A DNA stretch of 64,000 nucleotides, taken from Bacteroidota bacterium (GTDB taxonomy: Bacteria > Bacteroidota > Bacteroidia > AKYH767-A > 2013-40CM-41-45). This document shows positions 5,416 to 23,544 of the stretch, piece after piece. A model generated the notes under the pieces. That model made no database searches, was not told the origin of the DNA, and saw only the letters and a program-made list of their open reading frames with translations. Each line of letters begins with the position of its first letter. Position 1 is the first letter of the stretch. A program made the position numbers and the translations under genes. The DNA is taken from NCBI GenBank assembly GCA_016720655.1, contig JADKKE010000010.1, positions 69,042 to 133,041 of the forward strand, given 5' to 3'.

Positions 5416-6768
5416 ATGAAAAATAAACTACGCAACAGGAATCGGCAAAAAGCGAGAATGTCTACACGGCTAATGATTGTCCTGGCGACATTCTCGGGTG
5501 TGTTCCTTTTGACATTGGGCTGGTTAGTCTACCTGAATTTCGACAACCTGAGTAAAACCAGAGCTTCCGGCAATGGCGGCGAAGGCGGTGGAACCGCACT
5601 CAATACGACAGGTGAAATTCTGACGGAATTCACATGGGAAAAAAATCCTGTATCACTTGCCACCTTGGGTCCTGATGCAATAAAATGCAGCAAAGATGCA
5701 CATAGCATGAATGGCGGACGGTCCTCTACGAATGGTTTGTCTCCAGGACCAAATGGCAAAGATATCGACCTTGAATTTGAGGCCACAGAATTATTTAATC
5801 AGGAAGGAATAGACATCAGCATAGATTACAGGAGAAGTGAGCCCGGTGGTTCGTTCTTTAGCAGAGGAAACAATTTTAATTTCGGGATAGAAAATAATAT
5901 TTTGACCATCGCTTACCGTATTGAAAATGCAAAGGGAGGAAGTGAAATTGTGAAAGAGCGAACGAATTACGAAATACCTGATGACCCACTCTACCGTACG
6001 TATCGTTTCATTTATTCACCAAATTCAGGAAAAGCAGAAATATTCGTGAACAGTGTTGTTGTTTGGAGTCATCAGGGCCCCGGAAATGCGCCGCTGTCAT
6101 GGAAAAATGCAGGCAATATTGTGATCGGAAAAAACTTGAATGGAAATGGTGTAGACAAAGCCATACTGGATAATCTTGTTGTTCGCTCAACCGGATCGGT
6201 TTCTCCACTTGCAGAGTCTCTTTTGAATTTCATGCTTGAACCGAAAGAAGGAGTTGTCAAAGTTCATTGGTCAAGTTCTGCGAATGACAAAGTTGATTAC
6301 TACACAATTGAGCGATCCATTAATGGTGTTGATTTCGTTAATGTGAGTAATGTTAAATCCAATCCTCAGAAACCGGAAGGAGAAGAATACGAATACATCG
6401 ACAAAACATCTGCATCTACAAGTATTGTATACTATCGCTTAAGGCAAACATTCCTAAACGGAAAATTTGTAACACATCCACTTTCAGCAATCAAATTCAA
6501 AACAGAAAAAGATTTTGCGATAGAACGTGTGAATCCACAAATGTTTGACCACAGTTTCGATGTATCGTATTTTCTTCCGAAGTCAGGGAGAGTCTGGATG
6601 CAACTGAGTGATTCCAAAGGGAAAGTCATCAGTACTGAAACTTTCGAAGCACCACAGGGAAAAAATGTTCATGTATTCAAAGATCAATTGAACCTCGAAC
6701 ATGGAGAATATACGCTTCACCTGATTTTCGATAATAAAAAAATAAGCACGAAGGTGACGAAGGCATAA
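5416..6768 (+). CDS. Membrane-anchored or secreted protein with a Gly-rich linker, a beta-sandwich (LamG-like?) region and a type-A T9SS sorting domain
   Basis: The N-terminus is a basic stretch plus TM segment (MKNKLRNRNRQKAR..LMIVLATFSGVFLLTLGWLVYLNF), followed by GNGGEGGG. The C-terminal sorting domain reads ..VHWSSSANDKVDYYTIERS..YYRLRQTFLNGKF...GEYTLHLIFDNKKISTKVTKA. Confidence 0.7.
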   Translation: MKNKLRNRNRQKARMSTRLMIVLATFSGVFLLTLGWLVYLNFDNLSKTRASGNGGEGGGTALNTTGEILTEFTWEKNPVSLATLGPDAIKCSKDAHSMNGGRSSTNGLSPGPNGKDIDLEFEATELFNQEGIDISIDYRRSEPGGSFFSRGNNFNFGIENNILTIAYRIENAKGGSEIVKERTNYEIPDDPLYRTYRFIYSPNSGKAEIFVNSVVVWSHQGPGNAPLSWKNAGNIVIGKNLNGNGVDKAILDNLVVRSTGSVSPLAESLLNFMLEPKEGVVKVHWSSSANDKVDYYTIERSINGVDFVNVSNVKSNPQKPEGEEYEYIDKTSASTSIVYYRLRQTFLNGKFVTHPLSAIKFKTEKDFAIERVNPQMFDHSFDVSYFLPKSGRVWMQLSDSKGKVISTETFEAPQGKNVHVFKDQLNLEHGEYTLHLIFDNKKISTKVTKA

Positions 6769-6854
6769 ATCCTTCCATTCTAAAAGTATTTAAGCTTCGT
6801 AATAATCCGGTGACGATTTGATTTTATCGGGAACAGGATTTAATCGAATTCATA

Positions 6855-6900
6855 AAAAACAAAAGGGAAACAAATTTCTTTGCTTCCCTTTTGTCTTTTG
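6855..6900 (-). terminator. Terminator hairpin downstream of porE-like copy 1
   Basis: aagggaaacaaa-tttc-tttgcttccctt followed by a T-rich run on the minus strand. An identical element lies at 16655..16700. Confidence 0.5.
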
Positions 6901-6917
6901 TGTTGTTGGGGATCGGA

Positions 6918-8833
6918 TTATTTCTGTGTCATCTTGGTGACCTTAAATTCTGTTCTCCGGTTGGCCTGGTGCTGCTCTTCGCTACACTCCACACCATTGC
7001 TGCAGCCATTCACCAGCTGCGTTTCTCCGTAGCCTTTGGCAACCAGTCGATCAGCAAGGATGCCGTGCTTCACAAGGTAGTCGACGACCGATTCAGCCCG
7101 CTTCTGGGAGAGTGTCATGTTGTATTTGTCGTCGGCCCGCGAATCGGTATGTGAGCCCAGTTCTATCGAGATATCCGATTGTCACGCATGATTCCTACCA
7201 GTTTGTCAAGGCCTTCCGCTGCATCTGTACGGATATTGTATTTATCCAAATCGTAGTAAATGTTCTCCAATACTATCGGTTTGTTCACGATGATCTGTTC
7301 CATCTCCAGCTTGAGCTTGACAAACATATTCTCGCTCTGCTTCTTTCCCACCGTACTGACCGGTTCCGTATTGGTAAAGTAACTGTCCTTGCTCCCCATC
7401 ACTACATAGTCCGTCTCCGGGTTCAGCTTGAAGAAAAATTTTCCATCCGGACCCGTGGTGAAGAGTTCTTCTTGCCCGTCTTCTTGTTGGTCAGTTCAAC
7501 CACCACGCCCGCGAGCGGTTCCTGTGTCGATTTCTCAACAGCTATCCCTTCCAGGGTAAAGCGTAAATCATTCACCGTAAAGGCATAGATATTATCCTGG
7601 GTCGTATTCTTTGTGTCGCGGTTGCTCGATACCAATCCCGCCGTCCCGCTGTCGTTCAAGGCGATTCCAAAATCATCGTAACTCGTATTGAGCGGATAGC
7701 CCATGTTCTGCGGACGGCTCCAACTCCCTTCACTTTGCGTGCTGCTGAATACATCCAGTCCGCCCATTCCGTAATGGCCCTCTGAACTAAAATACAAGAT
7801 CGAATCCTGGAAGCTCATCGGGAAGAGTTCGTTGTTCGGACTGTTTACCGTTGGACCCAGGTTTTCAGGTTTGCTCCACGCTCCGTTTTCTTTTTTGCAA
7901 CGGTACACATCCGTGCTGTCTTGTCCGTTTGGCATGTCATTCACAAAATAGAGTGTGTTCCCGTCTTTGCTCAAACTCGGATGGCCCAAACTATAGTCTG
8001 CATTGTCGTAGGGAAAATCTGTGATGAAACGAAAGGTGCTGTCTTTCTTTATGCCCTGGCAGATCTTTAAGATCACTACATCGTCGTCAGACTTCTTCAC
8101 TTTCCGGGCCACATACGTATTCCGTGTGAAGTAAACAGTATCTCCTTTGCTGCTGAAGCTGGCCGGACCTTCGTGGTAGATTCCGTTCAGTTCTCCTTTG
8201 AGTAATTCCGGTGCGCCGTAATTCCCCTTCCCATTGTCTTTGGAATAATACAAATCCAAAAACGGACGGCCCGTCCACTGGTAGGTTTTCGTCGAACCTT
8301 TTGCCCGGGGTACGGTCGCTCACAAAAACGATTCCATCCTTGTACCACACCGGGGAGAAGTTACTCTGACCGCTGTTGATGCTGCTGCTCTGAAGTGTAT
8401 ACTTTGCACTATCGGCCTGCCACCGTGTAATGCTGTCGCAGGAACTCCGCATTTTGCGCGCGCTTTCATCGCCCGGCTGAGAGCCCAGGTATTGGTCAAA
8501 ATAATTTTTTGCCTGTTCGTATTTTCCGCTCCGCATCAGAAGCTGTGCATACCGAAGGCGGTGGATCGGCTGGACTTCTTTGAGTTGCATCACCTTTCCA
8601 TAGGCTTCCTCCGCCTTGCCCAAATTATTGGTCATCCGGTAACTCTCTGCCAGTTTGATCTGTCCTTCCGGAAAGTTTTTCTTCCCCAGCGCTTTCTGGT
8701 ATTCTTCGATCGCACTGCTGTAGGCCAGATCCCGGTACATCCGGTTACCCTGACGCATGTGATAACTTGCACAGCTACTCAACAGTACTACTACTGCTGC
8801 ACTCGCTGCAATTTTGGAAAAGTTCTTGATCAT
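6918..8833 (-). pseudogene. porE: PorE-like T9SS outer-membrane protein (TPR + PD40/TolB-like beta-propeller + carboxypeptidase-regulatory-like + OmpA_C), copy 1, broken into four ORFs by frameshifts
   Basis: The fragment ORFs 8087..8833, 7423..8259, 7163..7402 and 6918..7118 are collinear with the 510-aa copy 2. The N-terminus has a lipoprotein-like signal (LLSSCAS) and TPR repeats. PD40 motifs (WSKPENLGPTVNSPNNELFP) and an OmpA_C tail (SQKRAESVVDYLVKHGI...NRRTEFKV) are present. The indels relative to copy 2 are mostly at homopolymers. Confidence 0.7.
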
Positions 8834-8838
8834 ATTTT

Positions 8839-8942
8839 ATTTGTTCAAGGTTCAAAGTTCAAGGTTCAAGGTTGTTTTGAGTTGATGAGTTTGAGAGTTA
8901 GGAGTTAGCAACCGTCCCTCGTCCCTCGTCCCCCGTCCCTTC
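8839..8942. repeat. Intergenic short tandem repeats: (ttcaaggt) x4, gag-tt-rich units, and (cgtccc) x3
   Basis: The tandem units are visible directly. The copy at 18405..18500 has different unit numbers. Confidence 0.8.
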
Positions 8943-8944
8943 CC

Positions 8945-9874
8945 TTAAAAATAACGTGGCGTCTTGATCTTCATAATATCATATCCAAAATCATAGCCTA
9001 TCATGATCTCGTGAGAGCCGGAGCTGTAATCCTTGATATCGGTAAATGTAAAATCATAGCTGTAGCCCAAACGCAACTTCTTGCTCAGTTGCAATTCCAA
9101 AAGCGCGACAAAGCTGTCGCCTGTCCGGTAACTTCCGCCGATCCAAAGCGTGTTGGCAAGCAAGACATTCAGATTGAAGTCTGCTTCCACCGGTGCATTC
9201 TGTACATACTTCACCAGCACGCTCGGACGAAGAACTACATCCGGATGCACCGGCAATGCCACACCCACTGTCCCAAAGTAATGGCGCACCTGATGCGGGA
9301 TCACCTCGCCGCTATTCACATCGATACTCAGACTCTTGCTTGGATCATAGCTGATGATCGTAGGTACCGATAAGCCAGCATAAAATTTTTCAGTATACAA
9401 ATAGGCGCCTGCTCCAACGTTCGGCAGGAATTTCGATACCTGATCACCCGCAAAAGCCGGATCACCCGTATCCCAGTATTTTAAATCGCTGTTCTTATAA
9501 CTGTAATACCCGCCTCCGGCACGAAGTCCAACCGAGAGTTTCATCTTCGCTCCTACCTTCAGATGATACGCCGCATTCAGGTACGCATCCGTTCTGTCCG
9601 TCACCGCGATTTTATCATGGCTCAGCAATACGCCCCAGCCAAAATTCGTCAGACCCAAAGGACCGTGCAAAGAAGCAACCTGTGTCTCCGGCGCGCCTTT
9701 AAAATCAACCCACTGCTTCCGGTACAACAGTGTCGCCATCATGTACTCTTTGCTCCCCGCATACGCAGGGTTCAACAGCAAATGATTAAACATATACTGG
9801 CTCACAAGGATGTCCTGCTGCGCATAACCACTAAGGCCACTCAGGAACAGGACGATCGTTAGGATTCTTTTCAT
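8945..9874 (-). CDS. porP: T9SS membrane protein of the PorP/SprF family, copy 1
   Basis: Signal peptide followed by QQDILVSQYMFNHLLLNPAYAG...LLYRKQWVDFKGAPETQ, the hallmark N-terminus of PorP/SprF. The protein is 309 aa. It lies directly downstream of an adhesin with a type-B sorting domain. Confidence 0.9.
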   Translation of the reverse strand: MKRILTIVLFLSGLSGYAQQDILVSQYMFNHLLLNPAYAGSKEYMMATLLYRKQWVDFKGAPETQVASLHGPLGLTNFGWGVLLSHDKIAVTDRTDAYLNAAYHLKVGAKMKLSVGLRAGGGYYSYKNSDLKYWDTGDPAFAGDQVSKFLPNVGAGAYLYTEKFYAGLSVPTIISYDPSKSLSIDVNSGEVIPHQVRHYFGTVGVALPVHPDVVLRPSVLVKYVQNAPVEADFNLNVLLANTLWIGGSYRTGDSFVALLELQLSKKLRLGYSYDFTFTDIKDYSSGSHEIMIGYDFGYDIMKIKTPRYF

Positions 9875-9927
9875 GGGTTTTTATTCGCTCTGCAATTGTT
9901 TTGAAGGAGATGAAGCATGGATGTGAT

Positions 9928-11067
9928 TTATCTCCGTAAATCCACATATGAATTAAGCCGGATATCAGAATTTTTAATGGTGAGTACAACAAAGTAAGTT
10001 CCCTCCGGCAACGCTTCTCCATCCTTATTTTGCCCGTTCCAATCGGTGTTCATGTAGTTTTCCTTTTTGTAAACTTCATTCCCCCAGCGATTGAATACTG
10101 TGAACATATTTTCCGGGTACCTGTTGATGCCATGGATTTCATAGAACTCACCGAAAGGATCACCGTTGGGAGAAAATCCTGTTGGAAGATCGAGATCACA
10201 TTCCGCTACAGGAGGAACAATGATTTGCACTGTATCATATCCATAGCAGGTTCCATCCGTGATTGTCCACAATAAAATATTGGTACCATCTGTCAGGTTC
10301 GTCACTGTTGAATTTGGTGATGAAATACTGCTGAAAGTAGCACTTCCGCTAAGGTAACTCCAGGTACCGGTTACTGCACCGTTCAGTTGAGCGTCCAAAG
10401 AGAAAATCGGATCACAACCGGTCTGGTCAGTACCCGCATTCGCGGCGATCTGATTCGGCTGAACAATGATCACCGAAGAAGTACTCGTACAGTTGTTTCC
10501 ATCTGTAACGGTAACCGTATATGTATTCGGAGCCAGTCCGCTTGCGGAAGAGGTCGTTCCACCTGACGGTGACCAGGAATAGGTATATGGAATAATACCG
10601 CCATTCACATTTGCATTTGCACTACCATCACTTGTTCCATAGCAGGTAACGTTGACGCTTGTAGCTGTAATTGCTATCGCTTGTGGTTGGGTAATGGTAG
10701 CATTTAAATTAAGTGTACACCCATTTGCATCGGTAATCACAACGGAAATGGTACCCGCGGTTAAGCTATCTGCAATCAATCCTGTATCACTATTCGACCA
10801 TGCATACGTATAAGGTGCGGTTCCACCTGTCGCAGCAGTAACACTTGCATTGCCATTGTCACCGGTATTGCAACTCACCGGTGATGTCGAAGCAATACTC
10901 GAAGCAACAGAACCCGGCTGAAGAATATTTACTGAATCCAAAACCACACAATTATTGTTATCTGTGATAGTCACTACTATATATCCCGCTCCCAAACTAT
11001 CCGCACCGGTTCCAATGTCACCATTTGACCAGGAATAATTATAGGGTGAAGCTCCTCCCCGTGACAC
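9928..11067 (-). CDS. C-terminal segment of the copy-1 SprB-repeat adhesin, carrying the type-B T9SS sorting domain
   Basis: The sorting domain ends ...NGQNKDGEALPEGTYFVVLTIKNSDIRLNSYVDLRR. SprB-type repeats (GGTAPYTYAWSN..DTGL..DSL.AGT..V..TDANGC) are present. Its 5' end overlaps the next segment in another frame. Confidence 0.8.
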   Translation of the reverse strand: MSRGGASPYNYSWSNGDIGTGADSLGAGYIVVTITDNNNCVVLDSVNILQPGSVASSIASTSPVSCNTGDNGNASVTAATGGTAPYTYAWSNSDTGLIADSLTAGTISVVITDANGCTLNLNATITQPQAIAITATSVNVTCYGTSDGSANANVNGGIIPYTYSWSPSGGTTSSASGLAPNTYTVTVTDGNNCTSTSSVIIVQPNQIAANAGTDQTGCDPIFSLDAQLNGAVTGTWSYLSGSATFSSISSPNSTVTNLTDGTNILLWTITDGTCYGYDTVQIIVPPVAECDLDLPTGFSPNGDPFGEFYEIHGINRYPENMFTVFNRWGNEVYKKENYMNTDWNGQNKDGEALPEGTYFVVLTIKNSDIRLNSYVDLRR

Positions 11068-11869
11068 TCACATTGGCAGTACCATCATTTACTCCACTAC
11101 ACCGGGCGTCTACTCCCGAAACTGTTGGAATCAGTTGAGGACTTTCCGTGATGGTGGCTGAAACAGTACCTGTACAATTGTTTGCATCCGTAATTGTAAC
11201 TGTCACTGCGCCGGCAGGCAAACTGTCGGCAGTAATACCTGTGTCTCCATTCGTCCATGAATAAGTAAAAGGAGATGTGCCACCACTGAAGGTGACACTC
11301 GCTGAACCAAGCGCTGAACCGAAACACAAATTATCTATCTGAGAAGAAATGCTTGCAGTAATTGTTGGCAGCGCACTTACCACAACGCTATCCAGGTGTG
11401 TACAATTCACGCTGTCAGTTATGGTGATATAATAAGTACCCGGACTTAATCCGCTTGCAGTGGCAGTGCTTTGTCCTCCCGGATTCCAGGAATACGTATA
11501 CGGGGTGAGACCACTGGTTACGACGACACTGGCTGATCCATTTGATTGTCCACAGGTCGTTGCTGTTGACGAAATGGTGTTTGTGATTGCAGGAGGCTCC
11601 GTTAGTGTGAAGCTTGCTGAATCAACACAGCCATTTGCATCTGTAATATTCACAGTGTAGGAATTGGCAGCAAGTCCTGTGATGTTCTGAGTTGTTTCTG
11701 TAGTTGACCAGAGATATGAAATCGGTGCTACACCTCCATTTACATTCAGGTTAATAAATCCATCTCCGGAATTGTTGCATGTCAGATTGAATCCATTGAA
11801 TCCGAAATTGTCGCAACCGGATCCAATGGCAAAGGTTCCGTAAGAATAAAGGAGGTGTCCAACATACAA
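11039..11869 (-). CDS. Middle segment of the same SprB-repeat adhesin, joined to its neighbours by apparent frameshifts
   Basis: Contains the same repeat family (SGLTPYTYSWNPGG...TITDSVNCT). It overlaps both flanking ORFs. Confidence 0.65.
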   Translation of the reverse strand: MYVGHLLYSYGTFAIGSGCDNFGFNGFNLTCNNSGDGFINLNVNGGVAPISYLWSTTETTQNITGLAANSYTVNITDANGCVDSASFTLTEPPAITNTISSTATTCGQSNGSASVVVTSGLTPYTYSWNPGGQSTATASGLSPGTYYITITDSVNCTHLDSVVVSALPTITASISSQIDNLCFGSALGSASVTFSGGTSPFTYSWTNGDTGITADSLPAGAVTVTITDANNCTGTVSATITESPQLIPTVSGVDARCSGVNDGTANVSVTGRSFTL

Positions 11870-14800
11870 CCATTTGCATCAAAGACTCTGACATTGATTG
11901 TATCTGCAGGTAAATTGCAAGCCTGGTTTCCAAGAATATTATCATCGATATCCCACTCATAAGTATAAGGAGTGCTTCCACCTCCTACTGCTACAGTAAT
12001 ACAAGCAAGTGAATCTCCGTTGCAGGGAACATTGTATCCATTGAACAAAGAAAATGTAGCACTAAGATTGACAGGAATCGGCTGTGTGAATGAAATTGAA
12101 TCTGTATGCTGACAACCATTGCTGTCAGTGACTGTGAGGTAATATGTTCCGGCACTCAGACCCACTGCCGAATCAGCCACATCTCCGTTAGACCATAAGT
12201 ATTGATAAGGCGGTACTCCTCCCGATGCAGTAGCATATGCTGTTCCATCATTGTATCCGAAACAACTCACGTTGACACCACCACTATACACGAAGGGCTC
12301 AGAAATTGTTACACTGGTATCTTTTCTACATCCATTGCCATCAATAATAGTTACATCGTATGTCCCCGAAGTCAATCCGCCAATGCTATCGGTCGTCTGA
12401 GAATTGGACCACAGATATGTATAATTCCCATCTCCGCCGGTAACTGTGAGGGAAATGAAACCATTGCTTCCACCATTGCACTGAACTCCATAACCCTGGA
12501 AATCGGCAGTAACTGCGGGAGTCGTCAATGAATCCGGATTTGGCAAAACGAAACCAACACTATCCGTACAATTATTCACATCCGTTACTATCGCATAAAC
12601 AGTCCCTGAAGTCAGATGACCGCAGGAATCAGTGGTTGCACCGTTTGACCATAAATATGTATAGGGAGCAACACTTCCGGAAGTATTTAGAATTACATAT
12701 CCGGATGAATCTCCAAAACATTTGGGTTGTTGAATAACAGGTGCGTAAGCAAAAGGATTCGGTTGAACAAGTGTTGTTGATCCAAGGATCGAACAACCAT
12801 TGATATCGGATACGGAAACCTCTACTGCTCCTGCTGGTAAATTGAAGATTGTGTCATTTCCTGATCCGGTGGACCAAAGGAAATTGTAAGGTGGAGTTCC
12901 ACCGGTTACTTGAGCAGAAACTGTTCCTGATGAATCTCCGAAACAACGCACATTCACATCTCCAAAAAATTGTATGGAAGTAATGAGCGAAACAAGAGTA
13001 TCCGGTTCCGTCACTGTAATAGTATCCAGTAAAGCACATCCATTAATATCAGTAATTGTCACATCATAAAATCCTGCCGGCAAACCTCCGATGCTGTCGG
13101 TAGTTTGTGAAAGCGGACTCCACATATAAGAATAAGGTATGGAACCGCCATACGCAACTGTTTTGATCCAACCCGAAGATTCACCTCTGCAAATAACATG
13201 ATGAACAATCAGAGAATCCTGTAAAGTTGCAGGTTCTGTAAGAGTGGTTGATATCAGGGTAGTGCAACCATGGTTGTCTGTAACAGTAACTGAATAGGAT
13301 CCGGCAGGAACTTGTGCAATGGAATCAAGAACAGATCCATTCGACCACGCATAAGTATACGGTGCTGTTCCACCGATTACACTTGCCTTCACTGTGCCTG
13401 TAGAATCTCCATTGCATCCGATATTCGTACCACCCGGAGTGATTGAAAAGTTGATGAATGTAGAACTGAGAACAAGAGGTTCGGTGATTAGTACTGTTGT
13501 ATCGAAGGTACACAGATTTGCATCCACGATAGTCACTGTATATGTTCCGGCAAATAAACTGTCGGCACTATTCCCTATATCGCCATTTGACCAACTTACA
13601 TTATAAGGAGGTGTTCCTCCGGATGGAACAACATTGGCTGTTCCCGTAAAACCACCATTGCAAAGTACATCTGTGGAAACGAGAGATGAAGCAGGGATTC
13701 CAACAGCAGCTCCAGGTTGTGTGATCGTTTGTGTAATAATTTGCTGACATCCTTTGGAATCACGAACAGTGTCAGCATATGTGCCGGGTGCAAGTCCGCT
13801 TACGTTTGCTGTGGTATCACCATTGGACCAGGAATGGGTGTACGGACTGGTTCCACCACTTACCGTGGTTGATATTGTTCCGTTTGCATTCCCGTTACAA
13901 GTCACATTATTAAATCCAGAGATCGCTGCATTCAAAATTGTTGGTTCGGTGATCAGCACTGTGTCCTCACTTGTACATCCATTTCGATCTGTAACTGTAA
14001 CGATATATGAATTTGCGGCAAGACCGGTTGCAGTAATTGTTGTTTGACCTCCCGGAGCCCAGGAATAAGTGTACGGTAGAATTCCCCCGGAAGCAGATGC
14101 AGTGGCGGTTCCGTCAGTACCTCCGTTACAACTTACATCCGTTGAACTTGCAACGGATGTAGCAATAATTGTAGGTGGCGCTGTTAGAGTTGTAGAATTT
14201 GTTTTGGTACAGCCACTGGCGTCCGTTACAGTCACTGTAAATGTTCCTACTCCCAGCCCGGTTGCAGTTTGTGTTGTCTGGCCGGAAGGATTCCAGGCAT
14301 ACGTATACGGTAAAGTACCACCTACTGCGACTGCGGTAATTGCTCCATCACTTCCTCCGTTGCAATGCAAATTATATCCGTTGTATCCGGGAGAAGTTAC
14401 ACTCACGTCAATAACCGGAACAGTGATGGAATATGAAAATGTTTGTGAACCGTTTGTCGGACAAGCATTGTCCCTCACAATTACAATGAATGAATACGGT
14501 TGTGATCTCGCATCGGCTAAGGTTGGGGTCCAGGTGAAAGTACCTACAGGGTTCAATATTCCGGACGTTGTAAATGTCGCTCCCGGAATCACGTCATTCC
14601 AATACATCAGGACTGTATCGGTTGGGTTTGGGTCGGTAGAGTTAACAGTAAAAGATATTGTACTTCCCGGACAGCCAACAGTAGCAAAAATATTCGTGCC
14701 ATTAATTCCGGAAGCTATCGGCAACAAGTTTGGGTTACATACCTTGGTTAAAAATTGCATATCCCGGATCACACTACCGATAAGGACACCATTTCTGTAT

Positions 14801-15639
14801 TCACGAACAAGAATAGCTGTTACTCCAATTTCTCCATTCACCGTTGCATTCATATTGATGTCGCCGTTGTTGGAGTTTAAACTCACAGCGGGACTTGATG
14901 ATAAGGGAGATGCAGCGGAATAACCGGGATTAAAAGTAACCGTGCCAATTGTACTTGTTGCTGCGTCGAATTTCTTGGGAGTAACAAATGAATAAACCAA
15001 TGAATCTCCATTCGGATCAAATACTCCATGATTGTATGTGAAACTTTGATTTACACAAACAAAAGCTACAGGAATATTTGTGAATTGTGGCGAACTATTA
15101 CTTTGAAAAGCCAGGTTGTTAAAGGTAGCTTCAACGTACATGTTATCGCTACATGGAGCATTCAGTGTTGTAATTGCGCAATTTCTGCAACACACATAAA
15201 AACTAAATACCCAATCTGCACATTGCTGAGGAAGTGTGACATTGTTTTTGTATTCATATTTCTGATAACCTGCATAAGGTGATGCTGCATTTGTACATTT
15301 GGTTTGCACTGTGCGACAAGGAAAAGTGATTTCCTGCCCTGTGCCGGGCACCAGGTTTAATGTAAAATTCTGATTTCTGCTGCAGGAGGTTGACTTCGCA
15401 TTCAAGGTCACAGTTCCGGGAGCAGCAACTCCTGCACAATCTCTGTAGAAGGATACAGTGACAGTGTATGTGTTCCCACTCACCCAGGTATAGGTAAGAT
15501 CGGCTCCTGACGAGTGTGTTGCGAACGTTTGTTGTGATGGAAAGGCTGCAAAAAAAAGTACGAGGAGAAACGTTAAAACCGGTACTAAAAAACTTCCGGA
15601 ATCTCTTTTTGCAATATTCAGGTATCGTAGTTTCATCAT
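11782..15639 (-). CDS. N-terminal approximately 1285 aa of the copy-1 SprB-like gliding-motility adhesin
   Basis: The likely start is MMKLRYL, with a signal peptide (FLVPVLTFLLVLFFAAFPSQQTFA). The N-terminal domain is conserved with copy 2 (TYTVTVSFYRDC versus TYRVELTFYRDC). More than 12 SprB repeats (GGT.PY.YSWSNG...GTY.VTVTD.NGC) follow. Confidence 0.8.
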   Translation of the reverse strand: MMKLRYLNIAKRDSGSFLVPVLTFLLVLFFAAFPSQQTFATHSSGADLTYTWVSGNTYTVTVSFYRDCAGVAAPGTVTLNAKSTSCSRNQNFTLNLVPGTGQEITFPCRTVQTKCTNAASPYAGYQKYEYKNNVTLPQQCADWVFSFYVCCRNCAITTLNAPCSDNMYVEATFNNLAFQSNSSPQFTNIPVAFVCVNQSFTYNHGVFDPNGDSLVYSFVTPKKFDAATSTIGTVTFNPGYSAASPLSSSPAVSLNSNNGDINMNATVNGEIGVTAILVREYRNGVLIGSVIRDMQFLTKVCNPNLLPIASGINGTNIFATVGCPGSTISFTVNSTDPNPTDTVLMYWNDVIPGATFTTSGILNPVGTFTWTPTLADARSQPYSFIVIVRDNACPTNGSQTFSYSITVPVIDVSVTSPGYNGYNLHCNGGSDGAITAVAVGGTLPYTYAWNPSGQTTQTATGLGVGTFTVTVTDASGCTKTNSTTLTAPPTIIATSVASSTDVSCNGGTDGTATASASGGILPYTYSWAPGGQTTITATGLAANSYIVTVTDRNGCTSEDTVLITEPTILNAAISGFNNVTCNGNANGTISTTVSGGTSPYTHSWSNGDTTANVSGLAPGTYADTVRDSKGCQQIITQTITQPGAAVGIPASSLVSTDVLCNGGFTGTANVVPSGGTPPYNVSWSNGDIGNSADSLFAGTYTVTIVDANLCTFDTTVLITEPLVLSSTFINFSITPGGTNIGCNGDSTGTVKASVIGGTAPYTYAWSNGSVLDSIAQVPAGSYSVTVTDNHGCTTLISTTLTEPATLQDSLIVHHVICRGESSGWIKTVAYGGSIPYSYMWSPLSQTTDSIGGLPAGFYDVTITDINGCALLDTITVTEPDTLVSLITSIQFFGDVNVRCFGDSSGTVSAQVTGGTPPYNFLWSTGSGNDTIFNLPAGAVEVSVSDINGCSILGSTTLVQPNPFAYAPVIQQPKCFGDSSGYVILNTSGSVAPYTYLWSNGATTDSCGHLTSGTVYAIVTDVNNCTDSVGFVLPNPDSLTTPAVTADFQGYGVQCNGGSNGFISLTVTGGDGNYTYLWSNSQTTDSIGGLTSGTYDVTIIDGNGCRKDTSVTISEPFVYSGGVNVSCFGYNDGTAYATASGGVPPYQYLWSNGDVADSAVGLSAGTYYLTVTDSNGCQHTDSISFTQPIPVNLSATFSLFNGYNVPCNGDSLACITVAVGGGSTPYTYEWDIDDNILGNQACNLPADTINVRVFDANGCMLDTSFILTEPLPLDPVATISDSMDSI

Positions 15640-16065
15640 TGATTGGGGTTGTGAAATGGCAAACGGATCACCTCGAATCTTGTTCGAGCGCAAAACGCAC
15701 CAATGGTGCAAGTTCGTATTTCACAGTACATTAATTGACTCTTATACCCCTATCCTTATGAACACTTTTATTAACAAAAACGAAGGATTTTACTCTTGAA
15801 ATTAACAAATCGTCACAATCAATGCATCCGATTCCATTCAAAAAAAAATTGCGTACACGAATTTCAATGCGGCTGTCATGTGCTTATTTTCAACCAAACA
15901 AAATCTTTAATTTTTGGTATCCATGCGGATATCGTTAAAAAGAATTGAAAAATTTTTACACAGGAGCAATAAGCAAACACAAATTTGTGATGCACAACAA
16001 AAATGGAGACACACAAAATTCAATGATAATTACCCTTTCAATCGATCACTCGAAAGGATTGAAAA

Positions 16066-16482
16066 TTATACAGGCCAATCGTTAATAGTCATAACTGTGC
16101 CCGGTGAATCGCCATAGGTCGTAATCGTCATTTTAAGGGCTGAAATTACGATCCTTTCAGTCATGGGATTTGTATCGTGATCATTGTATGATTCAAAGTA
16201 ATTCACAACGTATGCGTCTTCAAACTCTATCGATTTTTCACGCATTCCGGTTCTCCGTGAACGGAAATGAAGTTCACCTCTTTTTGTTAAATGATGTTCC
16301 ACCATCCATTGAATAAAGGTAATATCTCCCGATGTTTCTACTTCAAGGTTGATCAGCCCTCCGAACACACGACCATTGGGTCTTCCTGTTTCTGTGATGG
16401 GTTGATTGAATGCATAATCACAATGCATCACTCTGTACGTTTTTCCTTCGATTACCAATTCGGCATTGTACACAATAGGCAT
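16066..16482 (-). CDS. Hcp/TssD-like tube protein of the Bacteroidota T6SS-iii type, orphan gene
   Basis: 138 aa. The sequence MPIVYNAELVIEGKTYRVMHCDYAFNQPITETGRPNGRVFGGLINLEVETSGD...SIEFEDAYVVNYFESYNDHDTNPMTERIVISA matches my recollection of Bacteroidota TssD proteins in size and motif order. Confidence 0.55.
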   Translation of the reverse strand: MPIVYNAELVIEGKTYRVMHCDYAFNQPITETGRPNGRVFGGLINLEVETSGDITFIQWMVEHHLTKRGELHFRSRRTGMREKSIEFEDAYVVNYFESYNDHDTNPMTERIVISALKMTITTYGDSPGTVMTINDWPV

Positions 16483-16654
16483 AATAGTTGTTTTTAATGA
16501 ATAAGAAATTTTTAAGATCTGAATCCTTTGACCGATTCAATTGAATCACAAGTTATAAATTTTCAATAACATAGCAAACTTCCAATGGAAGCCCGCCCTT
16601 TCGGAAATACTAAGACCGTCACAATCAACAGCATTTTGTAATAGATTATAAAAA

Positions 16655-16700
16655 GACAAAAGGGAAACAAATTTCTTTGCTTCCCTTTTGTCTTTTGTGT
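16655..16700 (-). terminator. Terminator hairpin downstream of porE-like copy 2
   Basis: The same hairpin plus T-run as at 6855..6900. Confidence 0.5.
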
Positions 16701-16714
16701 TGTTTGGGATCGGA

Positions 16715-18391
16715 TTATTGCTGTGTCATCTTGGTGACCTTAAATTCTGTTCTCCGGTTGGCCTGGTGCTGCTCTTCGCTACACTCCACACCATTGCTGC
16801 AGCCATTCACCAGCTGCGTTTCTCCATAGCCTTTGGCAACCAGACGATCAGCAAGGATGCCGTGCTTCACAAGGTAGTCGACGACCGATTCAGCCCGCTT
16901 CTGGGAGAGTGTCATGTTGTATTTATCGTCGGCCCGCGAATCGGTATGTGAGCCCAGTTCTATCGAGATATCCGGATTGTCACGCATGATTCCTACCAGT
17001 TTGTCAAGGCCTTCCGCTGCATCAGTACGGATATTGTATTTATCCAAATCGTAGTAAATGTTCTCCAGAACTATCGGTTTGTTCACGATGATCTGTTCCA
17101 TCTCCAGCTTGAGCTTGACAAACATATTCTCGCTCTGCTTCTTTCCCACCGTACTCACCGGTTCCGTATTGGTAAAATAACTGTCCTTGCTCCCCATCAC
17201 TACATAGTCCGTCTCCGGGTTCAGCTTGAAGAAAAATTTTCCATCCGGGCCCGTGGTGAAGAGTTCTTTCTTGCCCGTCTTCTTGTTGGTCAGTTCAACC
17301 ACCACGCCCGCCAGCGGTTCCTGTGTCGATTTCTCAACAGCTATCCCTTCCAGGGTAAAGCGTAGATCATTCACCGTAAAGGCGTAGATATTATCCTGGG
17401 TCGTATTCTTTGTGTCGCGGTTACTCGATACCAATCCGGCCGTCCCGCTGTCGTTCAAGGCAATCCCAAAATCATCGTAACTCGTATTGAGCGGATAGCC
17501 CATGTTCTGCGGACGGCTCCAACTCCCTTCACTTTGCGCGCTGCTGAATACATCCAGTCCGCCCATTCCGTAATGGCCCTCTGAACTAAAATACAAGATC
17601 GAATCTGGAAGCTCATCGGGAAGAGTTCGTTGTTCGGACTGTTTACCGTTGACCGAGATTTTCAGGTTTGCTCCACGCTCCGTTTTCTTTTTGCAACGGT
17701 ACACGTCCGTGCCGCCTTGTCCGCCCGGCATGTCACTCACAAAATAGAGTGTGTTCCCGTCTTTGCTCAAGCTCGGATGGCCCAAACTATAGTCTGCATT
17801 GTCGTAGGGAAAATCTGTGATGAAACGAAAGGTGCTGTCTTTCTTTATGCCCTGGCAGATCTTTAAGATCACCACATCGTCGTCTGACTTCTTCACTTTC
17901 CGGGCCACATACGTATTCCGTGTGAAGTAAACCGTATCTCCTTTGCTGCTGAAGCTGGCCGGACCTTCGTGGTAGATTCCGTTCAGTTCTCCTTTGAGTA
18001 ATTCCGGTGCGCCGTAATTCCCCTTCCCATTGTCTTTGGAATAATACAAATCCAAAAACGGACGGCCCGTCCACTGGTAGGTTTTCGTCGAACCTTTGCC
18101 CGGGGTACGGTCGCTCACAAAAACGATTCCATCCTTGTACCACACCGGGGAGAAGTTACTCTGACCGCTGTTGATGCTGCTGCTCTGAAGTGTATACTTT
18201 GCACTATCGGCCTGCCACCGTGTGATACTGTCGCAGGAGCTCCGCATTTTGCGCGCGCTTTCATCGCCCGGCTGAGAGCCCAGGTATTGGTCAAAATAAT
18301 TTTTTTATCCGGTTACCCTGACGCATGTGATAACTTGCACAGCTACTCAACAGTACTACTACTGCTGCACTCGCTGCAATTTTGGAAAAGT
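16715..18391 (-). pseudogene. porE: PorE-like OmpA/PD40 protein, copy 2, with a deletion of about 250 bp in the TPR region and internal compensating frameshifts
   Basis: The 510-aa ORF 16715..18247 carries the PD40 repeats, the carboxypeptidase-regulatory-like region and the OmpA_C domain. The original start at 18391 (MIKNFSKIAASAAVVVLLSSCASYHMRQGN) now runs into a stop because a deletion is visible at 18295..18310. The stretch KKKTERGANLKISVNGKQSEQRTLPDELPD is out of frame relative to copy 1. Confidence 0.7.
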
Positions 18392-18404
18392 TCTTGATCA
18401 TATT

Positions 18405-18500
18405 TTATTTGTTCAAGGTTCAAAGTTCAAGGTTCAAGGTTGTTAGTGGTTTGTGAGTTCGTGGGTTAACGTCCCTCGTCCCCCGTCCCCCGTCCCTTCC
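18405..18500. repeat. Intergenic short tandem repeats (ttcaaggt, gtgrgtt, cgtccc units), a variant of the set at 8839..8942
   Basis: Read directly in the sequence. Confidence 0.8.
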
Positions 18501-18501
18501 C

Positions 18502-19431
18502 TTAAAAATAACGTGGCGTCTTGATCTTCATAATATCATATCCAAAATCATAGCCTATCATGATCTCGTGAGAGCCGGAGCTGTAATCCTTGATATCGGT
18601 AAATGTAAAATCATAGCTGTAGCCCAATCGTAATTTTTTGCTCAGTTGCAATTCTAAAAGCGCTACAAAGCTGTCGCCTGTCCGGTAGCTTCCACCGATC
18701 CAAAGCGTGTTGGCAAGCAAGACATTCAGATTGAAGTCTGCTTCCACCGGTGCATTCTGTACATACTTCACCAGCACGCTCGGACGAAGAACTACATCCG
18801 GATGCACCGGCAATGCCACACCCACTGTCCCAAAGTAATGGCGCACCTGATGCGGGATCACCTCGCCGCTGTTCACATCGATACTCAGACTCTTGCTCGG
18901 ATCATAACTGATGATCGTGGGTACCGATAAGCCCGCATAAAATTTTTCAGTATACAAATAGGCACCTGCTCCAACGTTCGGCAGGAATTTCGATACCTGA
19001 TCACCCGCAAAAGCCGGATCACCCGTATCCCAGTATTTCAAATCGCTGTTCTTATAACTGTAATACCCGCCTCCGGCACGAAGTCCAACCGAGAGTTTCA
19101 TCTTCGCTCCTACCTTCAGATGATACGCAGCATTCAAATACGCATCTGTTCTGTCAGTCACCGCGATCTTATCGTGGCTCAGTAAAACTCCCCAGCCAAA
19201 ATTCGTCAGACCCAAAGGACCGTGCAAAGAAGCAACCTGTGTCTCCGGCGCGCCTTTAAAATCAACCCACTGCTTCCGGTACAACAGTGTCGCCATCATG
19301 TACTCTTTGCTCCCCGCATACGCCGGGTTCAACAGCAAATGATTAAACATATACTGGCTCACAAGGATGTCCTGCTGCGCATAACCACTAAGGCCACTCA
19401 GGAACAGGACGATCGTTAGGATTCTTTTCAT
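18502..19431 (-). CDS. porP: PorP/SprF-family T9SS membrane protein, copy 2, identical protein to copy 1
   Basis: The ORF translation is identical to that of 8945..9874. Confidence 0.9.
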   Translation of the reverse strand: MKRILTIVLFLSGLSGYAQQDILVSQYMFNHLLLNPAYAGSKEYMMATLLYRKQWVDFKGAPETQVASLHGPLGLTNFGWGVLLSHDKIAVTDRTDAYLNAAYHLKVGAKMKLSVGLRAGGGYYSYKNSDLKYWDTGDPAFAGDQVSKFLPNVGAGAYLYTEKFYAGLSVPTIISYDPSKSLSIDVNSGEVIPHQVRHYFGTVGVALPVHPDVVLRPSVLVKYVQNAPVEADFNLNVLLANTLWIGGSYRTGDSFVALLELQLSKKLRLGYSYDFTFTDIKDYSSGSHEIMIGYDFGYDIMKIKTPRYF

Positions 19432-19522
19432 GGGTTTTTATTTTTCTTGCACTTGATTTATTCATTGATTGGAATAAATCAAAAATATCTTAGTTGAAAA
19501 TTAGTTTTGAAATTAAATTGCT

Positions 19523-22500
19523 TTACTTCGAAACATAGCGTCTTAAATCAACATATGTATTTTTCTTGATTTCAGAATTTTTAATGGTGAGCACAACAAA
19601 GTAAGTTCCTTCAGGGAGTTCTTCACCATTGTTGTTTTGACCTTTCCAATCCGTGTTCACATAATTTTCTTTTGCATACACTTCATTGCCCCAACGATTG
19701 AAGACACGGAATGAATTGTTCGGATAACCTTCAATACCTTTTATTTCATATCCATCATTGTAAGTATCATCGTTCGGAGAAAATCCTGTTGGCAAATCAA
19801 TATCACACTGATTGTCATAGTCGACCGAAACAGTATCAGCAGATTGACAGGTTCCATTTGTTACCTGCCAGACAAATACTGTTTGTCCGGGTTGCAAAGC
19901 ACTCACATCTGTTGTGTCATTGTTCGGATTAACAATACTACCTTGTCCGGGAGCCTGTATAGTCCAGCTGCCTTGTCCATAAGTAAGACCGATTGCAAGC
20001 AATTGTCCGTGATCAATACACAGTTCCTGATAAGCACCGGCATCCGAAGAAACAGGTTGGTCGGCAGTGACAATTCTACTGTCAGCTCCGGTACACGCAC
20101 CATTTGAAATGATCCAGGTGAGAGTGTCTGTTCCGTAATCCAATAAATCAGCGGTTGCATTTGGAAGTGTAGGATCATTGAAAGCTGAATTTCCCGTTGA
20201 TGACCAAATTCCATTGAAGCCGGTGTATGCTGTTGCGTTCAATTGTATTTGAGCAAGACCACAAAATGCAGTATCTACACCGGCATCCGCAACAAATGTT
20301 GTATAATTAAAAACTGTAACATCATCAGAAGCAGTACACCCATTTGCATCTGTAACTGTCCAGGTAACCTGATTGAAACCCGGCGATAAATTACCTGCTG
20401 TTGTGTTTGGATCTGTGGTTCCCGCAAAAGTTATTCCTGTTGTGGAACTCCAAACACCGGATTGTCCGGTAAGCAGACTTGCTGCCAGTTGAATACTCGT
20501 TCCGGAACACATGGCGGTATCCGGACCGGCAATTGCAAGTACCGGAGATGGCTGATTTAAATTTACAGTTTGTTGAGTAGAACAATTGTTCTGATCAGTA
20601 ACAGTTACGACATATATTCCCGCATCAACATTGGAAATATCCTGAGATGTAGCCCCTCCCGGATTCCACGCATAATTGTATGAGCCCAATCCACCCGAAA
20701 CGCTGATATCAATCGAGCCATTGCTTCCGGCATAACATGTCGGTTGGATTGTGGATGTAACAGTGACAGCGATTTGTGGTGGTGAATCTATCTGGACATT
20801 CACAAACGTTGAACATGCTGCCGCATCAATTACGAACAGGTCATAGGAACCGGCAACGAGATTTGTAGCTATCGAAGAACTTCCACCATATGGAGTCCAG
20901 GAATATGTATACGGTGCGGTGCCACCGCTCACCAATTGTGCACTGGCAATTCCGGTACTGTCACCAAAGCAGGATGCATCCGATGACAAAACCGTAACAA
21001 CAATCGGTGCCGGTTCACGAACCTGAACCGTATCGAATGACAAACAACCGTTCGCATCCTGAACACCTGCTATGTAAATACCGGCAGTCAAACTCACAGC
21101 TGTATCCGTAAACTGCGGCGGCACAGTGTTCCATGTGTATGTAAAAGGTGCTGTTAAAGAAGAATCCGGAACAACGAGCGCTGTACCATCAGCATATCCA
21201 TTGCAGGAAACATCATCAATTACATATGCAAAGGGAACAGGAATATTATCTGAAACCGGTACATCAACAGAACTGATACATCCATTTGCATCAGTAACTT
21301 CAACATTATAAATTCCAGAAGGTATACCGGAAATACTCGAAGTAGTTGCACTCAGGGTATCCCAGGCATATTGATAATTGGGAGTTCCGCCACTTACAGT
21401 TACAGTGGCTGAACCATTTGCAACACCACAGGAAGAATTTGTTGAAGATCCGGTAAGGATCAATTGTGGTGCTGAATTTATACTTATCGTATCTGTTCCA
21501 ACACATCCTACAGTATCCGTGATGGTAACAACATATGATCCCGCGGCAAGATTAATTGCCGTAGGTCCGGTCTGAACCGGATTTGTATTCCATATATAAG
21601 TATAGCCCGGTGTTCCACCACTCACACTCACAGTTGCAAATCCGGTTGTGTCACCAAAACAATTTAATACTCCGGAGACCGAATCCACCGAAACCACCAA
21701 TGCTGTTGAAGAAGGTGAAACAGTTACAGAATCAGTCGTTACACAACCTCTGCTGTCTGTGATTGTAATGTGATAAACCCCTGCAGCAAGACCTGTTGCT
21801 GTATCTTCAGTAGTAATCGGATTGGTATCCCAGGAATACGAATATCCGGGAGTACCTCCGGAAGCAACGACAATCGCGACACCTGTATTGGTACCGCTGC
21901 AAGGAGATGAGCTTACACTGGTTGAAGCAGTCAACTGCGGTGGATCCGTAATCGTAACCGTTTGTGTCGCTACACAACCTGTTGTTGCTTCCGAAACAGT
22001 AACAGTATAAATTCCGGAAGTCAGATTTGAAATTGTAGCTGTACTAAAATTTCCCGGAGTCCATAGATAGGTATAAGTACCTGTTGAAGAACTGGGAACT
22101 GCTGTGGCTGTTCCATCCGTGAGTCCGTGACAGGAGATATCTGTACTGTTCAGAGCAGATATAGGTGAATTTACAAATACATTAAAAGAATAGGTTTGGA
22201 AACCGCTGTTCGGACATGCATCATCCAGAACCGTAACTGTAAATGTGTATGGATTTGTGCTGATACTTCCTGCAGGCGGTGTCCAGCAAAAATTTCCTGT
22301 TGGGTGTGGAAATCCGGAAGTGGTAAAAGTTGCTCCGGTAATTCCCTGGTTCCAGGTCATCGTCACGATTTGCCCGGCATCAATATCATCTGAATTAATA
22401 TCAAAACACAATTGTTGTCCGGGACAAACTGTTGTGTCACGAACAGAGGTACCATTGATTCCTGTCGCGGTGGGAAGATTGTTGGTACAATTGCGCACGT

Positions 22501-23392
22501 AAAATTCCATGTCCCGAACCACACTGCCAATCAAAACACCATTTCTGTATTCCTGCACCAGGACAGCGAGAACACCAATCTCAATTTGAGTTGGGGTCAT
22601 TACGATATCACCGGTTTGAGGGTCAATTGTTATTGCCGGAGATGAAGAAATTGGATTGATGCCGGTATATCCCGGTAAAAACGGAACTGACATAATTGAT
22701 CCCAATGAATCCTGCAAAGGATCAACGAGTGAATACACGAGCGAATCTCCATCCGGATCAGTAACGCCATGGTTATATGTAAAATTTTGTCCGACACACA
22801 GAAATGCAACCGGTACATTGCTAAACTGAGGGGAAGAATTGCATGTGAAATTCAGATTGTCGAGAGTTGTTTCAATATACATCCCAGGATTCGAGCCCAC
22901 CACACAGGGTGAGGGCAGATTCAATGTTGTGATATCACAATTTCTGCAACAATACGACCAGCTGATTACCCAATCCGCACATTGCATTGGCAAGGTGATG
23001 ATCCCTGAATATCTGTATTGCTGGATTCCGGGAATTGTTGACAGCGGATCTTCACAGGAAGTGATGACAGTCGGACAAGGGTAGGTAATTTCACCACCTG
23101 TTCCTGCTACCTGTAATAAGGTGTCTGTAAAAAACTGATTGCAACTTGCTGATCTGAAAACAATACCCACCCCGTTAGGCGGAAGTGAACCTTTACAATC
23201 TCTGTAAAAAGTTAATTCCACCCTGTAGGTATTCCCACCCAAACAGGCATAGGAAATGTCAGAACCGACAAGGTGTGTGGCAGATGCTTTCTGAGGTAGA
23301 ATTGCAGCTGTGGAGGCCAGCGATATTAACAAAATCAACCTGCGAAGTATTTGTTTCATGTTCGTATTTTTTAATTCAAAAATTGGTTGCAA
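19523..23392 (-). CDS. SprB-repeat gliding-motility-type adhesin with a type-B T9SS sorting domain, copy 2 (1289 aa, apparently intact)
   Basis: The signal peptide probably starts at MKQILRRLILLISLASTAAILP (around 23359). The N-terminal domain is conserved with copy 1, followed by SprB repeats (GGTPGYSYSW..., GGTAPYTYSWTP...) and the sorting domain ...EGTYFVVLTIKNSEIKKNTYVDLRRYVSK. Confidence 0.85.
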   Translation of the reverse strand: MQPIFELKNTNMKQILRRLILLISLASTAAILPQKASATHLVGSDISYACLGGNTYRVELTFYRDCKGSLPPNGVGIVFRSASCNQFFTDTLLQVAGTGGEITYPCPTVITSCEDPLSTIPGIQQYRYSGIITLPMQCADWVISWSYCCRNCDITTLNLPSPCVVGSNPGMYIETTLDNLNFTCNSSPQFSNVPVAFLCVGQNFTYNHGVTDPDGDSLVYSLVDPLQDSLGSIMSVPFLPGYTGINPISSSPAITIDPQTGDIVMTPTQIEIGVLAVLVQEYRNGVLIGSVVRDMEFYVRNCTNNLPTATGINGTSVRDTTVCPGQQLCFDINSDDIDAGQIVTMTWNQGITGATFTTSGFPHPTGNFCWTPPAGSISTNPYTFTVTVLDDACPNSGFQTYSFNVFVNSPISALNSTDISCHGLTDGTATAVPSSSTGTYTYLWTPGNFSTATISNLTSGIYTVTVSEATTGCVATQTVTITDPPQLTASTSVSSSPCSGTNTGVAIVVASGGTPGYSYSWDTNPITTEDTATGLAAGVYHITITDSRGCVTTDSVTVSPSSTALVVSVDSVSGVLNCFGDTTGFATVSVSGGTPGYTYIWNTNPVQTGPTAINLAAGSYVVTITDTVGCVGTDTISINSAPQLILTGSSTNSSCGVANGSATVTVSGGTPNYQYAWDTLSATTSSISGIPSGIYNVEVTDANGCISSVDVPVSDNIPVPFAYVIDDVSCNGYADGTALVVPDSSLTAPFTYTWNTVPPQFTDTAVSLTAGIYIAGVQDANGCLSFDTVQVREPAPIVVTVLSSDASCFGDSTGIASAQLVSGGTAPYTYSWTPYGGSSSIATNLVAGSYDLFVIDAAACSTFVNVQIDSPPQIAVTVTSTIQPTCYAGSNGSIDISVSGGLGSYNYAWNPGGATSQDISNVDAGIYVVTVTDQNNCSTQQTVNLNQPSPVLAIAGPDTAMCSGTSIQLAASLLTGQSGVWSSTTGITFAGTTDPNTTAGNLSPGFNQVTWTVTDANGCTASDDVTVFNYTTFVADAGVDTAFCGLAQIQLNATAYTGFNGIWSSTGNSAFNDPTLPNATADLLDYGTDTLTWIISNGACTGADSRIVTADQPVSSDAGAYQELCIDHGQLLAIGLTYGQGSWTIQAPGQGSIVNPNNDTTDVSALQPGQTVFVWQVTNGTCQSADTVSVDYDNQCDIDLPTGFSPNDDTYNDGYEIKGIEGYPNNSFRVFNRWGNEVYAKENYVNTDWKGQNNNGEELPEGTYFVVLTIKNSEIKKNTYVDLRRYVSK

Positions 23393-23544
23393 ATAAAAAA
23401 ATCAAACCGTCCGGAAACCCGTCGATTCGAATTGTAAGAAATTCTCATGTTTTACTTCAAATTAGAAATAAAAGTTCCATTATTTAAGTAAAATCTTGAT
23501 GATCAATTTTATGACTGAGATTTAACAAAAATTTAATTTGTAAT

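Follow-up and report, generated by a model that had tools for sequence, protein, structure and literature searches.

The 64,000-nt stretch of DNA analysed here (the window; positions 69,042–133,041 of contig JADKKE010000010.1, assembly GCA_016720655.1; coordinates below are window positions) comes from an uncultured activated-sludge species of Bacteroidia in the GTDB order AKYH767-A. Judged from its sequence, it carries a tandem pair of type IX secretion system (T9SS) cargo modules, each encoding an adhesin whose C-terminal domain (CTD) is of type B, a PorP/SprF-like protein and a PorE-like lipoprotein, and in both modules the gene for the PorE-like protein (porE) is broken. The best explanation of the locus as a whole, to which we assign a probability of roughly 0.8, is that the module pair is old, that the porP–porE anchor unit undergoes gene conversion, that porE is functional, and that the 1-nt frameshifts are errors in the consensus sequence. 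The module at lower coordinates, which contains adhesin 1, is referred to as distal (copy 1), and the one with adhesin 2 as proximal (copy 2).

An exact look-up of the PorP sequence returned the locus in ten places (L001–L010), including four NCBI metagenome-assembled genomes (MAGs), on contigs of 0.2–1.9 Mb, and four short-read metagenome contigs (L007–L010), each of which spans only one of the two porP–porE units. In all, twelve comparison loci from this species were checked. None of the comparison loci is the window itself, and at 97–98% nucleotide identity to it they therefore represent other strains of the same species. When the repaired PorE was searched against genome contigs, this species was not recovered (best match 85% amino acid identity), so that search provided no species-representative genome for comparison. 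Distal porE was aligned with L005, L002 and L010, proximal porE with seven other assemblies, and adhesin 1 with six loci; substitutions were tallied over 12 porE and 14 porP copies, all from this species. The loci compared from related species were L019–L030.

Frameshifts in porE and adhesin 1

In distal porE, one base is missing after position 7176 and another after 7468, and there is an extra T at 8299. Repair of these three 1-nt indels gave an intact open reading frame (ORF) of 638 aa, which accounts for the several indels reported for this copy in a preliminary description of the window. In proximal porE, three 1-nt deletions lie within 83 nt of each other and add up to −3, resulting in an out-of-frame stretch of ≈28 codons. 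In addition, 227 nt corresponding to copy-1 positions 8511–8737 are missing, which shifts the frame and removes residues ≈33–108 in the TPR region; the longest ORF left (16715–18247, 510 aa) lacks the signal peptide. The earlier estimate for this copy was a loss of about 250 bp with compensating frameshifts. Both the loss and the frameshifts are present, but the size is 227 nt, and the small deletions offset each other rather than the large one. Adhesin 1 is present as three ORFs because one nucleotide is missing at ≈11805 and one is inserted at ≈11060; once repaired, it has 1903 aa and is 98.6% identical to an intact 1912-aa ortholog.

In the multiple alignments, none of the eight 1-nt frameshifts (three in each porE copy and two in adhesin 1) is shared by another assembly; the adhesin 1 frameshifts were compared with the six other loci. 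In GCA_016718015.1, porE is intact (638 aa) at both positions, as is adhesin 1 (1912 aa). Among the short-read contigs, porE is intact in L007, L008 and L010, and free of stops as far as the truncated L009 extends. Three other assemblies have private lesions of their own in proximal porE: two 1-nt insertions in L003 (GCA_963852685.1), a 1-nt deletion in L006 (GCA_016702675.1, JADJDN), and a 2-nt deletion plus a 1-nt insertion in L001 (GCA_016718125.1). Adhesin 1 is also privately frameshifted in L006. Lesions that are different in each long-read-style assembly and missing from the short-read assemblies argue for consensus error and are unlike those of inherited pseudogenes, which would be expected to recur in independent data from the same lineage; by assembly comparison, no such recurrence was found. 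The comparison between related strains that the preliminary description had called for thus removes its premise of a pseudo-porE seen twice: every lesion is private, and elsewhere in the species the gene is intact or broken at other positions. In L006, no gene was called at 2932–7499, where an 884-aa cyanophycin synthetase would be expected, and both adhesins are fragmented, a sign that indel errors may be numerous in this sister MAG as well.

Other parts of the window contain similar differences. Over the 3.9 kb at 48.8–52.6 kb, alignment with a short-read contig gave 93 indel events and 77 mismatches, and at 52.6–61.6 kb there were 31 indels and 58 mismatches relative to short-read contigs of the same species. 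These indels are mostly 1–2 nt long and deletion-biased, and many lie outside homopolymers. The range 48800–56700, where the differences from short-read contigs are mainly 1–2-nt indels at up to ≈28 per kb, looks like an unpolished long-read consensus. Several T9SS cargo genes at 50–56 kb are fragmented, at positions where relatives have genes of 457–538 aa with Por_Secre_tail domains. A LuxR/GerE-type response regulator gene (57761–58401, minus strand) falls into two ORFs through a 1-nt deletion at 58087, and is intact (213 aa) in eight other assemblies; it adjoins the gene for a 630-aa TPR histidine kinase (58529–60421). A DUF5343 gene (41704–42292, plus strand) is present as two overlapping ORFs that match profile positions 22–98 and 91–138, probably owing to another frameshift error. 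There are also private multi-base deletions of 12 and 6 nt near 49615 and of 27 nt at ≈12293. The last of these is in frame within adhesin 1 and absent from the six other loci, and is due either to a true difference in repeat length or to an artefact of assembly.

For one sister MAG, JADJDN (Aved_18-Q3-R54-62_MAXAC.153), the procedure is documented: Nanopore R9.4.1 reads were assembled with CANU and polished with Racon and medaka (PMC8012365), followed by a single Illumina round of Racon with --include-unpolished (PMC8012365). From the accession series, we infer that JADKEM and JADKED belong to the same Nanopore study.

The twice-broken porE, as far as the 1-nt indels are concerned, is thus very probably best explained by sequencing-consensus error, one of three causes raised in the preliminary description and the best supported of them for these frameshifts, given the private lesions, the different lesions of other MAGs and the dense indel noise. 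The 1-nt frameshifts of the two porE copies and of adhesin 1 would be uncorrected indel errors of a long-read consensus and not mutations, and both porE copies would be functional genes in the species. Changes private to the window amount to 10 substitutions and 3 indels in distal porE, and to 4 substitutions and 4 indels in proximal porE, an indel-to-substitution ratio that would fit consensus error better than natural decay. Several of the indel sites are near CCWGG or GATC-like motifs, a possible hint of methylation-related basecalling error on which we do not rely.

We considered the possibility that each of the porE genes in this strain has truly, and very recently, become a pseudogene, with selection relaxed on the PorE-like anchors while PorP and the adhesins are still selected. 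This would agree with the disruption of both porE genes next to two intact porP genes, and with the clustering of frameshifts within 1–30 kb in porE and adhesin 1. However, the lesions are private to this assembly, while other assemblies are intact or have different private lesions; when read in the original frame, the great majority of substitutions are synonymous; and distal porE has no private non-synonymous changes outside a single 24-nt cluster (see below). Furthermore, frameshifts also occur in adhesin 1, in the response regulator and in the DUF5343 gene, and parts of the window reach the indel density relative to short-read contigs given above. We consider recent pseudogenization improbable.

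Since each 1-nt indel alters a short mononucleotide run, phase variation, in which slipped-strand mispairing at homopolymers would toggle the PorE-like anchors, was also evaluated. The runs, however, are just 1–6 nt long and scattered, and three hits per gene do not resemble a phase switch. Indel positions differ in every long MAG and no such indels are found in the short-read assemblies, while indels of the same kind occur in unrelated genes, many of them outside homopolymers. Phase variation was rejected because of the short, scattered runs, the positions that differ by MAG and the clean short-read assemblies, and is very unlikely indeed.

The duplicated porP–porE unit

The distal (3032 nt) and proximal (2792 nt) units are identical at 2716 of 2790 aligned positions (97.35%), with 244 gap columns, a similarity far beyond chance. 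The near-identical copies of about 3 kb described earlier were therefore recovered at the same coordinates, and the base-by-base alignment proposed at that time yielded 74 differing aligned positions, with every 1-nt indel changing the length of a short mononucleotide run. Just outside both ends of the unit, identity drops to ≈40–75%. The hairpin that follows distal porE has a predicted RNA folding energy of −27.5 kcal/mol (z = −8.97 relative to shuffled sequences), and its counterpart is located at ≈16645–16702, after proximal porE. A duplication created during assembly is hard to reconcile with copies that differ at 74 aligned positions and have unlike flanks, or with the recurrence of the two-copy arrangement in another species (L021) and in four further MAGs of this species, each assembled independently, whose contigs measure 0.2–1.9 Mb. 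With differing copies and flanks, recurrence in other assemblies and no point found in its favour, this explanation was rejected as having a negligible probability. The duplication is genuine and conserved.

Both porP genes are intact, and their products are identical at 309 of 309 residues, as originally described; the 26 nucleotide differences between the genes are all synonymous. Across the 14 porP copies, third codon positions account for 53 of 55 variable sites, and 12 of the 14 encode the same protein. This constraint is unusually strong for an outer-membrane protein. In the repaired frame, the two porE copies in the window differ at 27 codons by synonymous and at 7 by non-synonymous changes. 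Among the 12 porE copies, 82 of 107 variable sites fall at third codon positions, and 79 variable codon columns are synonymous only, while 20 change the amino acid, some of which adjoin private indels of other MAGs and may be alignment effects. Even within the out-of-frame stretch of proximal porE, both substitutions are synonymous in the original frame. The third-position bias that a pseudogene would lose has thus been retained (27 versus 7 codons; 82 of 107 sites), indicating that porE is not decaying, and the substitution patterns imply strong purifying selection on both porE and porP. Relaxed selection on PorE, another of the causes suggested earlier, is contradicted by these counts and by the intact porE genes elsewhere in the species.

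One stretch of distal porE stands apart. At 7917–7940 (codons ≈298–306), a span of 24 nt, six G-to-A changes (read on the gene strand) are private to the window and alter four residues, so that the sequence reads NDMPNGQDSTD, compared with SDMPGGQGGTD in all other copies, including the proximal copy in the window. All five private non-synonymous changes of distal porE are in this cluster, which could result from micro-conversion from another paralogue or from a local consensus error.

The gene order CphA, adhesin 2, PorP, PorE, adhesin 1, PorP, PorE recurs in the other species, L021, whose adhesin 1 and adhesin 2 orthologs are 60–62% identical at the amino acid level to their counterparts and ≈38–41% identical to the other paralogue. 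Since the two orthologs can be told apart, the duplication of the module predates the split between the species. The species of L024, L025 and L026 also carry the two-module array, and a further relative, L027, has a single module. The two porP–porE units of L021 are 99.8% identical to each other over 1941 nt, in a tract that starts exactly at the porP start, but only 67–75% identical to the units in the window. Within genomes, the units are 97–99.8% identical, which in an array this old points to gene conversion. Within this species, porP contains 360 pairs of sites that are incompatible by the four-gamete test, with a minimum of 14 recombination events when only long contigs are counted. The distal porP copies of four MAGs share distal-type alleles, whereas the distal porP in the window is of the proximal type at most of those sites.

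A greater similarity among the paralogues of one genome than among the orthologues of different species, together with mosaic site patterns, is what concerted evolution would produce. There is thus support for gene conversion as a genuine feature of the locus, although not as the cause of the porE breaks: of the suggestion that ongoing conversion might account for the disruptions, the conversion itself is borne out by L021 and by the porP mosaics, but it fails to explain the lesions. The two-module array would be old, and the porP–porE–terminator unit would have been kept near-identical by gene conversion under strong purifying selection.

Familiar examples of duplicated bacterial genes evolving in concert through gene conversion are tufA/tufB and the rRNA operons. 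The locus described here shares with these the far greater similarity of paralogues within a genome than of orthologues between species, the mosaic alleles and the sharp tract boundaries. It differs in that the homogenised tract is a two-gene anchor unit located behind divergent cargo genes.

The 227-nt deletion and the points against consensus error

The 227-nt deletion in proximal porE may be a strain variant or an assembly artefact, and we regard its being real as possible, at well below even odds. In the former case, it would be a true strain-specific lesion that left proximal porE dead, with distal PorE serving both modules in trans, a reading of the same limited probability and one that would still allow the small indels to be errors. 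Its size is atypical of homopolymer consensus errors and the junction is clean. Since the PorPs do not differ at all and the PorE copies do so at few residues only, one PorE could plausibly work with either PorP. On the other hand, the deletion is absent from all seven copies of proximal porE and all three copies of distal porE in other assemblies, and no flanking repeat suggests a mechanism. The same assembly also contains the other private deletions described above (12 and 6 nt near 49615; 27 nt at ≈12293). The deletion junction had no match in a metagenome collection, but an intact-junction control matched one contig only, so that this negative result has almost no power. A broader version, in which a universal anchor pair homogenised by gene conversion serves adhesins of 36–39% identity, and in which the resulting redundancy allowed a real 227-nt deletion in proximal porE with distal PorE acting in trans, appears somewhat more doubtful still.

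Several points weigh against the overall interpretation of an old, converted module pair with functional porE genes and consensus frameshifts. Error was distinguished from mutation by comparing assemblies and not by observation in reads, and the sequencing technology is documented for the sister MAG JADJDN but not for the window's own assembly. Within the first 30 kb, all eight coding frameshifts are located at 6.9–18.3 kb and none is in either porP, a pattern that would also be expected from selective decay of porE; the absence of hits in porP, where about three would be expected, is marginal by our own estimate (P ≈ 0.05). The 227-nt deletion is atypical of consensus error, and a search for direct repeats at its boundaries, which would have suggested slippage, found none there. 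L021 is a short-read assembly, in which repeat collapse could have inflated the 99.8% identity, although even collapse requires high similarity. Finally, the short-read contigs may be chimeras of the two copies, inflating the apparent mosaicism, although the minimum of 14 recombination events holds for the long contigs alone.

Module composition, neighbouring genes and known systems

The features of the locus are listed in the table below. The assignment of the modules in the preliminary description, to SprB-repeat adhesins that carry a type-B sorting domain, to PorP, and to a PorE-like protein having a lipoprotein signal, TPR, PD40, CarboxypepD_reg and OmpA regions, agrees with the profile searches. 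PorP matches PF11751 with 262.9 bits over residues 18–294 (cut-off 22.3) and TIGR03519 with 277.4 bits (cut-off 90.55), and each porP begins downstream of an adhesin gene with a terminal CHU_C/TIGR04131 domain, at a distance of 53 nt in the distal module and 91 nt in the proximal one. In Pfam, the repaired 638-aa PorE-like protein contains TPR_2/TPR_19, PD40, CarboxypepD_reg (34.9 bits) and OmpA (63.3 bits), and a lipobox can be read directly from its N-terminal sequence, MIKNFSKIAASAAVVVLLSSC. The NCBIfam model T9SS_PorE (NF052230) covers residues 10–606 of the 638 with 439.2 bits, below its cut-off of 600, and the best match, CHU_0125_OmpA, scores 485.2 bits, below its cut-off of 620. Because both scores are under the curated cut-offs, we treat these proteins as cargo-linked PorE-like paralogues and do not file them as core PorE.

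Table. Features of the tandem cargo modules, in window coordinates
Feature	Position	Strand	Remarks
Duplicated unit, distal (copy 1)	6854..9885	−	Begins 11 nt upstream of the porP start codon and reaches the terminator that follows porE
Duplicated unit, proximal (copy 2)	16651..19442	−	Same content minus 227 nt within porE
Terminator-like hairpin with U-run	6848..6905	−	Directly after distal porE; downstream limit of the duplicated unit
Distal PorE-like gene	6918..8833	−	Lipoprotein signal (LLSSC), TPR, PD40, CarboxypepD_reg, OmpA_C; four ORFs in the window
Distal PorP/SprF-family gene	8945..9874	−	309 aa, intact; PF11751, TIGR03519
Adhesin 1	9928..15711	−	SprB repeats and type-B CTD (Pfam SprB, CHU_C); ortholog-supported start ≈15639
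Hcp/TssD-like gene, orphan	16066..16482	−	138 aa; PF17642, 115 bits; between the two modules
Proximal PorE-like gene	16715..18401	−	227-nt deletion after 18305; 1-nt deletions after 17604, 17650 and 17687
Proximal PorP/SprF-family gene	18502..19431	−	309 aa, intact
Adhesin 2	19523..23392	−	Intact; SprB repeats and type-B CTD; Pfam SprB, CHU_C, TIGR04131 (47.6 bits)

The sizes first given for the adhesins, about 1900 aa for the joined copy 1 and 1289 aa for copy 2, were close to those found here: 1903 aa for repaired adhesin 1, and 1289 aa for adhesin 2 when counted from a TTG start (1278 aa in the gene calls of relatives). The two had also been described as alike only in their N-terminal and sorting domains, but they are paralogous, and more than 1000 residues within their SprB repeats align at 36–39% identity; it is only in the DNA that the similarity (≈75%) is confined to the ends. 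There are seven PF13573 SprB repeats in adhesin 2 and 10 + 3 + 2 in the three fragments of adhesin 1. The type-B CTD was recognised by TIGR04131 (cut-off 35) with 43.1 bits in the adhesin 1 ortholog and 47.6 bits in adhesin 2, and by CHU_C with 79.8 and 82 bits in the two adhesins.

All assemblies of this species that extend across its site contain the Hcp/TssD-like gene, which had no tblastn match in the related-species loci L019–L030. No other genes of a type VI secretion system were seen near it in the window. A cyanophycin synthetase gene (884 aa) and a divergently transcribed S51-family peptidase gene, cyanophycinase-like in appearance, occupy 23657–27372; this pair is a conserved left neighbour of the adhesin array, in related species as well. 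The region 41000–49600 is low in GC (32–37%, compared with 41–45% elsewhere) and contains small ORFs, in a neighbourhood that varies between strains, and an Abi_alpha abortive-infection gene lies within it at 48479–49276 (PF14337, 160 bits); the region is possibly a variable defence island. At 60659–62325, a 304-aa Por_Secre_tail gene (60659–61573) is followed by an apparent extra, diverged tandem copy (61603–62325), which aligns with the corresponding gene of other assemblies at ≈93% identity and with many gaps; no such second copy is present in those assemblies.

In Flavobacterium johnsoniae, six porP-like genes adjoin porE-like genes (Gorasia et al. 2022, PMC9143113). According to a published proposal, PorP–PorE-like complexes anchor non-mobile type-B cargo to the cell wall, while mobile SprB, which has SprF only, is not so anchored (PMC9143113). 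Both modules in the window resemble the F. johnsoniae clusters of type-B-CTD, porP/sprF-like and porE-like genes (PMC9143113) in gene order and content. Here, however, the modules are in tandem, with porP–porE 97% identical and adhesins only 36–39% identical. PorE (PG1058) and PorP of Porphyromonas gingivalis belong to the core T9SS, and the PorE-like protein has the same four-region architecture and lipoprotein signal as PorE; it differs in falling below the T9SS_PorE cut-off, with the CHU_0125 OmpA-like family as its best match. The likeness to F. johnsoniae SprB/SprF consists of the SprB repeats (PF13573, from 7 to more than 10), the type-B CTD and the adjoining PorP/SprF-family gene, but the adhesins here are much shorter (1278 and ≈1903–1912 aa). 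F. johnsoniae SprB is found in an sprCDBF context without an adjacent porE-like gene. This arrangement was not found here: no sprC or sprD homologs were identified among the annotated flanking genes, and the presence of the porE-like genes favours static adhesins over SprB orthologs. By inference from these systems, both proteins would be static surface adhesins. By analogy with F. johnsoniae and P. gingivalis, each would be exported by the T9SS and held at the surface by its PorP-like partner, which in turn would be tied to peptidoglycan through the OmpA domain of the PorE-like lipoprotein.

The module type is already known and the locus is an ordinary example of it. Its main value is as a caution: a pseudo-porE seen twice should not be taken to reflect relaxed selection on PorE-like anchors. 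The anchor pair evolves in concert behind diverged adhesins, which suggests that it may be interchangeable between cargo proteins. The strong constraint on PorP and PorE and their apparent concerted evolution fit the published idea of PorP–PorE-like complexes as wall anchors for static type-B T9SS cargo.

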